Shown one piece after another: positions 9,374-29,561 of a stretch of DNA of 63,496 bases; position 1 is the first letter of the stretch; every line of letters begins with the position of its first letter. Below the pieces are notes generated by a model. That model searched no databases. It saw only the letters and a list, made by a program, of their open reading frames with translations, and had not been told where the DNA came from. This DNA comes from a virus (taxonomy: Duplodnaviria > Caudoviricetes). The translations under genes and the position numbers were made by a program. The stretch lies in IMG/VR virus record IMGVR_UViG_3300012920_000036, positions 1 through 63,496 of that record; one strand, written 5' to 3'.

Positions 9374-9772
9374 ATGAGTAACTACAACAGAACGGTGTTA
9401 ACCGGACACCTCACAAGCAAACCGGAAACCAAGGAACTGCCAAGCGGAACTACGGTTACAGAATGTGACATAGCTGTTAACAAGTCATGGAAGGACAAGA
9501 GTGGCGAGTGGCAGGAGAAGGTAAGTTTTGTTCCGTGCAAAATATGGGGTGAGCGTGGGCCAGCTATTGCTGAACGATTCGACAAGGGACAACACGTTCT
9601 GATCGAAGGCGAGATCGAGATGGATAGCTGGGATGACAAGGAGACGGGCAAGAAAAGAACAAAGCTATCCATCATCATTACAAAGATGCTGAAGCTGGGA
9701 AGGCTTGGAGGAGGCGAACCAAACGAGGCTCCTAAAGCTGCACCGAAAAAAGACGACGACGTACCTTTCTAA
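9374..9772 (+). CDS. ssb: Single-stranded DNA-binding protein
   Basis: OB-fold motifs; acidic DDDVPF tail. Confidence 0.95.
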   Translation: MSNYNRTVLTGHLTSKPETKELPSGTTVTECDIAVNKSWKDKSGEWQEKVSFVPCKIWGERGPAIAERFDKGQHVLIEGEIEMDSWDDKETGKKRTKLSIIITKMLKLGRLGGGEPNEAPKAAPKKDDDVPF

Positions 9773-9789
9773 TTTGCCTGTAAATAAAA

Positions 9790-10113
9790 ATGATTCATCT
9801 GGTGATACAGGGGCATGGTCACATCATAAATTTCAAGAACTGCAAAGCTTGTTGGAGGAATATGTTGGTCACAGTCCCAAAGGCAAAAAACCAGATGAAG
9901 GCGATAGTGCAAGATTTCGTGTCACAATTGATCTCCTTGTATCAGACAACCGACGCCGCGACCCAGACGGGGCAATCAATACAATCATGGATTGCCTCGT
10001 CTCTGCCGTCCGACGATTCGGTGAGGGAGATCGACCAAATACTCGTTCGCGTAAAGCGAGTTCCAAAAGGAAAAGAGGGAGCAATCATAACGCTAAATAA
10101 AATCAACCAATGA
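9790..10113 (+). CDS. RusA-related protein (central catalytic motif lies in the -1 frame)
   Basis: N-terminal FKN and C-terminal DDS..I...EGAIITL resemble RusA; RRRDPDG...DCL appears in the overlapping frame. Confidence 0.6.
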   Translation: MIHLVIQGHGHIINFKNCKACWRNMLVTVPKAKNQMKAIVQDFVSQLISLYQTTDAATQTGQSIQSWIASSLPSDDSVREIDQILVRVKRVPKGKEGAIITLNKINQ

Positions 10114-10117
10114 ATTT

Positions 10118-10312
10118 AGCCCCACCCGTTCATAGTACAGATCAAATCAGACGAGCTTGGTTCCGCACGTCTGCCATTTGTTTTTTGGTGTTTTCCAAAT
10201 GGTTAAGGGTGGTCTGTGGGTGGGGCTATCAATTTAGTGGAACAACCCAGCGCCGTTGCTGGACGCCACTAAACCCCATGCAGGGGGCGGCTAATCCATC
10301 CTGCATGGGGAT
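10118..10312 (+). ncRNA. Putative structured RNA: one multibranch domain plus two hairpins
   Basis: AGCCCCACCC/GGGTGGGGCT enclosing ACAGATCA/TGGTCTGT, CAGACG/CGTCTG, CCATTTG/CAAATGG; then TTAGTGG/CCACTAA and CCCCATGCAGG/CCTGCATGGGG. Confidence 0.5.
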
Positions 10313-10328
10313 ATAATTTTTTTTAATC

Positions 10329-10691
10329 ATGGACGACAAAAACAAAACTACAACAGATAGTGGCCAAGATTTAATCGAATTGAACGGCCAAATGGTAAAC
10401 GAAACCCTTGCAAAAAAAGAAGTTAGGGAGTCGTTTAATTTAATGGCTCATCTTGCTAATGGCGCTTCAGTTCGCGACTTGCCCAGAATCGTTGACAAGA
10501 CGGATTTGAATGAAGATGACAAGTTCATCATTGCGGCTCTTGTCGTGACCTGTAATGCGTTCTGCTACGACATAGCAGGCGAACCTAAAGCAGATGAGAT
10601 TCTCGGCGGCACAGAGGGGTGGCAACTCCTGCGCGAGGCTCTAAACGCTGTTCAGCCACAGGAGGAGGCAGAGGGGGATGTCGGCAACTAA
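10329..10691 (+). CDS. Hypothetical protein
   Basis: ORF track. Confidence 0.65.
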   Translation: MDDKNKTTTDSGQDLIELNGQMVNETLAKKEVRESFNLMAHLANGASVRDLPRIVDKTDLNEDDKFIIAALVVTCNAFCYDIAGEPKADEILGGTEGWQLLREALNAVQPQEEAEGDVGN

Positions 10692-28514: not shown

Positions 28515-29561
28515 ATGGTAAACAAAACGGGTGTGGATTGTCCCACCACGACTCACATCTCTTTATGCACCGGCTGTGCAGGGCTTGACCTCGGACTACG
28601 AGCAGTTATCCCATCTCTTCGCACAGTACTTTATGTGGAGATCGAAGCCTTCAATTGCTCCAACTTGGCGCAGAAGATGCAACACAACTCCTTGGATGAA
28701 GCACCTATTTGGACTGATCTTACATCCGTCCCTGTGGAAAACTTTCGAGACAAGGTATTCGCAATCTCTGGAGGCTATCCATGTCAGCCCTTCTCATTTT
28801 GTGGAAGCAGACAAGGCGAAGAAGACGAAGGAGGCAGACACCTCTGGCCGTTTTGTCGCAGAACAATTCGAGCTATTCGACCTGTCTTCTGTATGTGGGA
28901 GAATGTCGAAGGACACATCACGCTTGGACTGTCAACAGTCATTAGCGATATGGAACACGATGGTTACCGCGCAACGTGGGGATTATTCTCAGCGCAAGTC
29001 GATGCAGATGCTCCGCACCAGAGAAAGAGAGTGTTCATCCTTGGCTTGCGGGAAGATGTCGATGCCGAAATCTTCAAGGACATCTGTCCAGAACTGGCCG
29101 ACGCCGACAACTCAAGACTGGAGAGATGGCTCGTCGAGGCGGAACGAGGACAACCTAGCGAGGGGTGGCAACCATGCAGTCAGCCTACAGCACAAGGTGC
29201 AGGCGGAGAACTGGCCGACACCAACGGTCAGCGACTACAAGGGCAGCGGCCCGATGACTATGAGGGACGACGGGGTAACAAGGATGTGCCGTCTGGACTA
29301 CGCAGTCGAACAGTCTGGCCAGCCAGACCAGGTGAGCCGCAAGAATCCTGGGAACCACCAAGAACAATTGAAGTCGGTGAGACTGAATCCGAGATGGGTG
29401 GAGACTTTGATGGGCTTGCCGGTGGGCTGGGTGATGCCGAGTTGTACGTCTCCTGTGACAATCGAGTAGACGAGTTACGAACATTGGGCAACTCAGTTGT
29501 CCCGCAGTCTGCTAGTGCTGCGTTTCTTCATCTAGCAAAAAGACTAATCCAGAATAAATAA
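28515..29561 (+). CDS. DNA (cytosine-5) methyltransferase, alpha-type chain
   Basis: Motifs I (SLCTGCAG), IV (GYPCQPFS), VI (ENV), VIII (QRKRVF), X (LGNSVVP); motif IX absent. Confidence 0.9.
   Translation: MVNKTGVDCPTTTHISLCTGCAGLDLGLRAVIPSLRTVLYVEIEAFNCSNLAQKMQHNSLDEAPIWTDLTSVPVENFRDKVFAISGGYPCQPFSFCGSRQGEEDEGGRHLWPFCRRTIRAIRPVFCMWENVEGHITLGLSTVISDMEHDGYRATWGLFSAQVDADAPHQRKRVFILGLREDVDAEIFKDICPELADADNSRLERWLVEAERGQPSEGWQPCSQPTAQGAGGELADTNGQRLQGQRPDDYEGRRGNKDVPSGLRSRTVWPARPGEPQESWEPPRTIEVGETESEMGGDFDGLAGGLGDAELYVSCDNRVDELRTLGNSVVPQSASAAFLHLAKRLIQNK
28531..29469 (+). CDS. Overlapping +1-frame ORF, putative MTase beta chain (TRD and motif IX)
   Basis: 312 codons open inside the MTase gene; two WPTP repeats and RLNPRWVETLMGLPVGW. 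Confidence 0.7.
   Translation: MWIVPPRLTSLYAPAVQGLTSDYEQLSHLFAQYFMWRSKPSIAPTWRRRCNTTPWMKHLFGLILHPSLWKTFETRYSQSLEAIHVSPSHFVEADKAKKTKEADTSGRFVAEQFELFDLSSVCGRMSKDTSRLDCQQSLAIWNTMVTAQRGDYSQRKSMQMLRTRERECSSLACGKMSMPKSSRTSVQNWPTPTTQDWRDGSSRRNEDNLARGGNHAVSLQHKVQAENWPTPTVSDYKGSGPMTMRDDGVTRMCRLDYAVEQSGQPDQVSRKNPGNHQEQLKSVRLNPRWVETLMGLPVGWVMPSCTSPVTIE

Follow-up and report, generated by a model that had tools for sequence, protein, structure and literature searches.

Overlapping reading frames of a marine phage and its relatives carry the parts of a RusA-like Holliday-junction resolvase and may encode it as two chains

RusA is a dimer whose fold consists of a strand, a hairpin, a helix, a further strand and helix, and two final strands, and in the E. 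coli protein the D-x-D that follows an arginine run and a later D-D pair are the acidic catalytic residues. E. coli RusA stems from the DLP12 prophage (PDB 1Q8R, 2H8C and 2H8E) and belongs to Pfam PF05866 and PHROG 34. The Rz/Rz1 spanins of phage lambda are two proteins from overlapping frames that act as one complex, and dnaX and lambda G/GT are examples of programmed -1 frameshifts, with a conserved slip site and a single shift. According to two reports (PMC2836561; PMC3404938), the C5 methyltransferase M.EcoHK31I works only with two chains, alpha and beta, and the coding sequence of beta lies wholly within the alpha gene in a different frame. Beta carries motif IX, which alpha, with motifs I-VIII and X, lacks, and can dispense with its first 42 residues. 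A full-text literature search returned no paper describing RusA in two frames. The PRFect paper names "RusA/RuvC" as one of the genes with a known frameshift; the source that could be identified within its references [35-42] is a ruvC paper of 1991.

The window, i.e. the whole stretch of DNA analysed here, is an entire IMG/VR virus record of 63,496 bases from a marine phage. On its plus strand it encodes ORF A (9790-10113, 107 aa, ATG to TGA), which consists of an N-module, a linker and a C-module. The N-module (9790-9933, frame A residues 1-48) is predicted to form a strand, a hairpin and a long helix and ends with S-Q-L-x-S. The linker in the middle of ORF A (9934-10002) is variable across the family and stop-free throughout, and the C-module (10003-10110), again in frame A, is characterized by L-P-S-D-D ... 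K-G-K-E-G-A-I-I-T-L. ORF B lies on the same strand in the -1 frame of A and extends from 9774, or from 9705, to 10100; the frame is open from 9693 and its stop codon occupies 10098-10100. Its leader (9774-9911) overlaps the N-module of A, has no conservation of its own and is free of stops. Thereafter follows the RusA catalytic core in frame B (9912-10007), R-F-R-V-T-I-D-L-L-V-S-D-N-R-R-R-D-P-D-G-A-I-N-T-I-M-D-C-L-V-S-A. The two ORFs overlap by 311 nt, and the same arrangement was found in 60 of 60 complete loci. Re-translation of 9790-10113 reproduced ORF A and the -1 frame exactly as given in a preliminary description of this DNA. Upstream of ORF A are an exonuclease-like gene and a gene for a single-stranded DNA-binding protein (SSB; 9374-9772, plus strand; PF00436, E 2.2e-27), whose stop codon (9770-9772) ends one base before the TTG at 9774, and a replication initiator is encoded downstream.

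Relatives were collected with frame-A patterns, which yielded 7, 9 and 33 loci in viral and metagenome contigs, and with an independent pattern for the frame-B core, which yielded 43 viral loci. After removal of duplicates the census comprised 65 loci with the core motif, 60 of them complete. Relative to the core, the N-module (...G-H-V-P-S-F-K-N-x-K...) occupies the +1 frame in every one of the 60 complete unique loci, recognized by pattern in 59 and by eye in L082. The C-module pattern (D-D ... K-G-x-E-G-A) was in frame A in 58 of them (56 by pattern, L056 and L094 by eye), giving the order A-B-A, and in frame B in the two others (L089, L092), which represent an A-B-B form. None of the 60 loci encoded N-module, core and C-module in one ORF. 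The layout, present in all 60 loci and recovered by frame-A patterns and independently by a frame-B pattern, is more than chance. An assembly error, which is ruled out by the recurrence of the layout in 60 of 60 complete loci, is also at odds with independent assemblies: 9700-10200 is covered by contigs of four runs from four other studies that differ by substitutions only, one of these contigs runs through the entire stretch and differs from it by 9 substitutions, with no gap, and seven aligned close relatives show no indel inside the ORF. The possibility of an indel raised in the preliminary description can thus be set aside.

A search of 1.84 billion proteins with our ORF-A profile gave 442 representative proteins at E<=1e-3, and none of the 24 of these that were fetched carried the arginine-aspartate core in frame. 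Some relatives of ORF A are longer, namely P0184 (252 aa), P0049 (256 aa) and P0145 (225 aa). In P0184 the ORF A-like part continues into a long added C-terminal part with an acidic tail and a final P-F like that of the window's SSB; this extension could be a fusion with a neighbouring gene or the result of a lost stop. In a collection of 5.8 billion proteins 41 ORF A proteins and 8 ORF B proteins were found, with a Pfam domain on none among the matches listed. Cultured relatives did not emerge from 50,697 phage records, neither by blastn with 9374-10330 nor by tblastn with ORF A of the window, L043 and L014. A two-pattern scan of bacterial and archaeal species genomes returned a single locus, L094 in a Bdellovibrionota MAG, a number that is limited by the patterns and is no measure of rarity.

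The RusA core that the preliminary description had placed in the -1 frame was confirmed by profile searches. Frame B of the window hit PHROG 34, annotated as "RusA-like Holliday junction resolvase", with E 5.9e-4 over residues 44-101 of the ORF starting at 9705, and 19 of 22 ORF B sequences matched the same family weakly (best E 8.5e-4). The frame-B profile had RusA (1q8r_A) as its top match in the PDB, at E 0.075, and direct comparison with E. coli RusA by hhalign gave E 1.2e-4 and a probability of 54% over RusA residues 40-91. Pfam RusA (PF05866) matched none of the 22 ORF B sequences of the A-B-A form, nor ORF A of the window, nor anything else in the window's own record, and NCBIfam had no match for the window ORFs, so that no curated RusA threshold was reached by any single ORF of the window.

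RusA-like N- and C-termini had also been claimed for frame A, and here the support is indirect. The ORF-A profile did not retrieve RusA from PDB sequences, Pfam or PHROGs (0 of 10) and did not match E. coli RusA by hhalign. However, an AF2 model of ORF A alone (pLDDT 83.7, pTM 0.68, linker pLDDT ~62) had 1q8r_A as rank 1 of 48,161 chains in a structural comparison (Z 4.6, rmsd 3.3, 83 aligned residues; next Z 3.3), and the C-module proved homologous to the tail of the core-bearing ORF B of L092, as described below. Foldseek of the same model against the PDB returned nothing at E<=0.001; RusA (2h8e) was rank 7 with E 5.7. The model contains strands at residues 2-7, 19-22 and 25-28 and a helix at 30-54. 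No strand was called over residues 72-96, where one would be expected, which fits a sheet without the strand that ORF B would supply.

The A-B-B loci connect the two frames. In L089 and L092 the C-module follows the core without a change of frame, and the N-module once more occupies the other one. The L092 ORF B shares 99% identity with an NCBI RusA family crossover junction endodeoxyribonuclease from a Leptospira MAG. Against the Pfam RusA cut-off of 22.8 bits, a relative of L092 (P0199) passes with 24.0, L092 itself scoring 18.8. By hhalign our frame-B profile matched the L092 core (E 1.4e-9), and the frame-A profile matched both the tail of L092 ORF B directly after the core (E 7.5e-7) and the N-module of L092 ORF A (E 1.8e-11). 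In the AF2 model of L092 ORF B a leader (residues 1-49, pLDDT <50) precedes a strand-helix-strand-strand arrangement, of which residues 50-117 fit RusA 53-117 (Z 6.2, rmsd 2.0, 65 aligned residues); 1q8r_A was again rank 1 of 48,161 chains, with the next at Z 4.2. Neither structural Z value, 4.6 or 6.2, reaches 8, the level taken as clear by the tool; both agree with the sequence evidence and fall short of proof. Acidic residues are conserved in both frames: frame B holds the D of R-R-R-D, whose invariance is by construction since it belongs to the anchor motif, together with the D at +8 (identity 0.78), and frame A holds D75 and D76, at least 90% conserved and invariant, respectively, in 120 diverse sequences.

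Selection switches frame along the locus, from A to B and back to A. In a synonymous-fraction test on 18 distinct sequences of the window's clade, the synonymous share of codon differences in frame A was 0.43-0.78 over 9790-9897, dropped to 0.00-0.02 over 9946-9981, and rose to 0.45-0.87 from about 9982 to 10089, reaching into the C-module. Frame B showed the complement, with 0.02-0.27 over 9790-9909 (except 0.55 at 9838-9861), 0.40-1.00 over 9910-9981, and lower values again thereafter. Arginine codons of the core switch between CGA, CGC, AGG and AGA, and the overlapping frame-A residues change with them. Frame B is under purifying selection. Family-wide, across 34 lineages with less than 80% nucleotide identity, frame A is conserved up to S-Q-L (9922-9930) and frame B from about 9915, and the middle of frame A varies freely between lineages. 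Outside the anchor pattern, whose columns are invariant by construction, frame-B identity in these lineages was 0.78 at D+8, 0.83 at T+13 and 1.00 at D+16, and core residues of frame B are invariant among lineages that share 35-50% identity in frame A.

At the first junction the conserved segment of frame A and that of frame B run into each other for about 6-8 codons, and within this overlap a hexamer, CAATTG (9925-9930, plus strand), is constrained in both. It encodes Q-L in frame A and lies within T-I in frame B. All of 14 diverse loci have CARTTR at this place: the frame-A leucine is never encoded by CTN, and in frame B, where the hexamer is part of [S/T]-[V/I], the Ser/Thr codon always ends in A (14 of 14). 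Such an overlap of conserved segments is not needed by a single reading path.

Both frames have furthermore been kept open where the other one is conserved, as the preliminary description had suggested looking for in homologs. None of the 60 complete loci has a stop in frame A over the core, and only L087 has stops in frame B over the N-module, which leaves that frame open in the 59 others. Synonymous codons of the conserved frame were resampled 5,000 times per locus in 13 representatives. The chance that frame B stays open over the N-module was 0.002-0.28 per locus and the chance that frame A stays open over the core 0.018-0.76; these values cannot simply be multiplied because the lineages are related, although many of them differ at most synonymous sites. 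In reality both were open in 13 of 13. The third frame contained stops over the N-module in 13 of 13 (2-6 each) and over the core in 12 of 13 (0-3).

Every complete locus (60 of 60) offers frame B a start codon ahead of the core. In the window's clade (n=18) it is a GTG or ATG at -4 from the ATG of A in 13 sequences, an ATG at -10 in 3 and a TTG at -16 in 2, the window and L001. TTG 9774 and TTG 9705 are the candidate starts in the window, where ORF B has TTG starts only and no clear ribosome-binding site; on a 68-kb relative contig (P0190) the gene caller used the TTG equivalent to the window's B start. In L056 and L060 the first canonical B start comes about 20 codons ahead of the core. The stop after the core varies from 3 to more than 30 codons away: L041 has it after three codons, L015 and L044 after about ten, and the window at 10100. 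Other lineages have a conserved frame-B peptide ahead of the ATG of A, M-P-x-W-T-x-x-E-L-x-x-Y-E, which a strict pattern detected in 16 of 62 loci and inspection by eye in about 4 more, with third-base differences that are synonymous. Its carriers include L014, L015, L037, L043, L057, L059, L069, L075 and L078, altogether about a quarter to a third of the lineages, and it is absent from the window's clade.

We consider it fairly probable that two polypeptides made from the overlapping ORFs form one RusA-like Holliday-junction resolvase, one of the readings offered in the preliminary description (there called a two-chain overprinted resolvase) and the one we favour on account of selection in complementary segments, two open frames and a separate start for B. 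The sequences show selection acting on the two frames in complementary segments, stops avoided in each, and a start that belongs to B; translation of both chains, their binding to each other and junction cleavage by the complex are suppositions of the proposal. Among the sequencing runs listed as containing the stretch, none was an RNA run. Chain A (9790-10113) would provide the N-terminal strand-hairpin-helix and a C-terminal two-strand module with the D-D pair, the two being connected through a linker without a fixed sequence. Chain B, read one base earlier, would begin at its own start, possibly TTG 9774 in the window and, in most close relatives, a GTG or ATG that precedes the ATG of A by 4-10 nt, and would consist of a disordered leader followed by the missing strand and a helix with the acidic motif R-R-R-D-x-D-G. 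By filling the gap in A, B would restore the RusA fold with an active site built from both chains, and because RusA is a dimer the particle is probably (AB)2. Separately started chains would explain the gaps in heptamer occurrence and the heptamer positions discussed below, the lack of a shift-prone motif at the second junction and of RNA structure at the junctions, the open frame B, the B starts and the upstream peptide, and M.EcoHK31I sets a precedent for such a gene.

Complex prediction for A plus B gave a score of 0.45, compared to 0.00 for the best of 3 controls; the runs agreed in at least 72% of contacts and the partner pLDDT was at least 49. Of 80 solved complexes 58 reach the mark for a pass, as do 2 of 110 mismatched pairs, and scores of 0.60 or lower include only 7 of the 80 solved complexes and both of the passing mismatches. 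The support from the prediction is weak, and such weak passes are more often wrong than right unless the pairing is likely beforehand. This weakness leaves some room for two separate proteins, with ORF A as a non-catalytic, RusA-derived DNA-binding protein and ORF B as an independent remnant of the old core. Two open frames, each with its own start, and the fair confidence with which ORF A is modelled by itself would be in line with that. However, what stays invariant in B is the acidic and arginine motif together with the helix, the parts that correspond to the RusA catalytic core in alignments; A retains the D-D pair, and it is hard to see two halves of an active site being maintained for unrelated jobs; the ORF A model moreover lacks the strand over 72-96, as expected of a sheet that awaits the strand of B. 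Two unconnected proteins therefore seem unlikely to us.

A different explanation is that one polypeptide arises by recoding, beginning at the ATG of A, shifting -1 into B before the core and +1 back before the D-D; in the A-B-B form the first shift alone would be needed. The order A-B-A of the conserved segments is that of a RusA chain, a single -1 shift would suffice for the A-B-B form, and the heptamer A_AAA_AAC noticed in the preliminary description is indeed present (9885-9891, plus strand) and in phase with frame A. In-phase X_XXY_YYZ heptamers occurred in the junction region in 29 of 61 unique loci, i.e. the window and 28 others, compared to 8 and 1 loci in the control phases. However, 32 of the 61 loci, including both A-B-B loci, have none, so that the site is not conserved in the family. 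The heptamers sit at two different places because of conserved Pro-Lys and Lys-Lys codons, and in both cases upstream of frame-A residues that stay conserved; M36, Q46 and L47, downstream of the heptamer, are at least 90% conserved in frame A in 120 diverse sequences. The overlap of conserved segments at the first junction also speaks against a shift. At the second junction, where a further, +1 shift would be required, we found no shared shift-prone motif or conserved codon beyond codons that are there because of the D-D of frame A.

RNA folding at the junctions points in the same direction. Conserved structure was detected at neither junction when 34 lineages were compared with shuffles, the mean z being 0.01 at junction 1 and -0.29 and -0.10 after it, with z < -1.64 in 5 of 34 lineages, namely the window's clade and a few others. 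The window has a clade-specific hairpin (9966-10001, plus strand) with a 12-bp stem, in which 9966-9977 pairs with 9990-10001 (z -2.76); in its clade the values were -3.10, -2.79 and -1.65, compared to the family-wide mean of -0.10. A family-wide junction hairpin was rejected, as the strong fold is confined to the window's clade and a few other lineages. The 42-mer that contains the hairpin (9960-10001) is invariant in the window's clade, and the contigs of three other runs break there. Recoding would also leave the open frame B, its start codon and the peptide upstream of the ATG of A without explanation. A programmed -1 shift at A_AAA_AAC, as envisaged in the preliminary description, is not supported, given the missing heptamers and the lack of conserved RNA structure, and production of one polypeptide by recoding appears distinctly unlikely. 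In its strict form, a single chain made by -1 and then +1 shifts with neither a known slip site nor a stimulatory structure and conserved over hundreds of phage lineages, we regard it as quite improbable; a reading of this kind would be new to recoding, and the sequence evidence argues against it.

A dead gene, whether as a fossil of compensating frameshifts or as an assembly artefact, is extremely improbable given a layout that recurs in all 60 complete unique loci from many samples and in 442 representative protein clusters, indel-free contigs in four other studies, purifying selection in both frames, and relatives in which, apart from the stops of L087 over the N-module, neither the expected frame-B stops nor a loss of the core motif was seen. 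Compensating frameshifts fail as a description of the present state, since frame B is under purifying selection, but may still be how the layout originated.

Gene callers report only one of the two frames, with a product that has no family name, so that annotation misses a recombination enzyme carried by many uncultured phages. If the enzyme is indeed composed of two chains, a Holliday-junction resolvase whose active site is formed by two chains from overlapping frames would be new, and it would be a natural example of a small nuclease fold working in interleaved pieces. Possible gains would be a fixed stoichiometry from one ribosome-binding site or control over a toxic nuclease. The architecture of M.EcoHK31I would then be no one-off of methyltransferases but a general phage way of making enzymes from two frames, and the same phage would use it twice, for RusA at 9.8 kb and for a C5 methyltransferase at 28.5 kb.

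The latter is encoded by an ORF on the plus strand (28515-29561) with a Pfam DNA_methylase domain over residues 14-207, which is overlapped on the same strand by a +1 ORF (28531-29469, 312 aa) matching PHROG 1008, DNA methyltransferase, with E 9e-22. On the ORF 28515-29561, PHROG 1008 matches the last 30 residues only, and weakly (E 0.0046). The pair looks like the alpha/beta layout of M.EcoHK31I. The two-frame methyltransferase layout is common to phage C75C1 and the window, and in coliphage K1G both overlapping frames are annotated as methyltransferases. K1G (L096; 187-486, 705-1529) has its two-frame methyltransferase two genes downstream of an annotated Holliday junction resolvase, a neighbourhood theme like that of the window in a cultured phage in which bench tests would be easy.

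Compared with the described systems, the locus resembles E. coli RusA in the core motif and helix of frame B, which align with RusA residues 40-91, and has neighbours that serve phage replication and recombination (exonuclease, SSB, replication initiator); E. coli RusA, unlike the present locus, is one chain of 120 residues in one frame. With dnaX and lambda G/GT it shares two meaningful frames and, in the window, an in-phase A_AAA_AAC, but its slip site is unconserved and two shifts would be required. Rz and Rz1, in contrast to the two chains proposed here, are not pieces of one ancestral fold. The A-B-A architecture is that of M.EcoHK31I, in which likewise an internal motif carried by the small chain is absent from the large chain; there the arrangement is proven at the bench, and here it is proposed from the sequence. 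M.EcoHK31I is an unrelated enzyme with an unrelated fold, and its nested frame lies wholly inside the alpha gene, whereas the start of ORF B precedes that of ORF A by a few bases.
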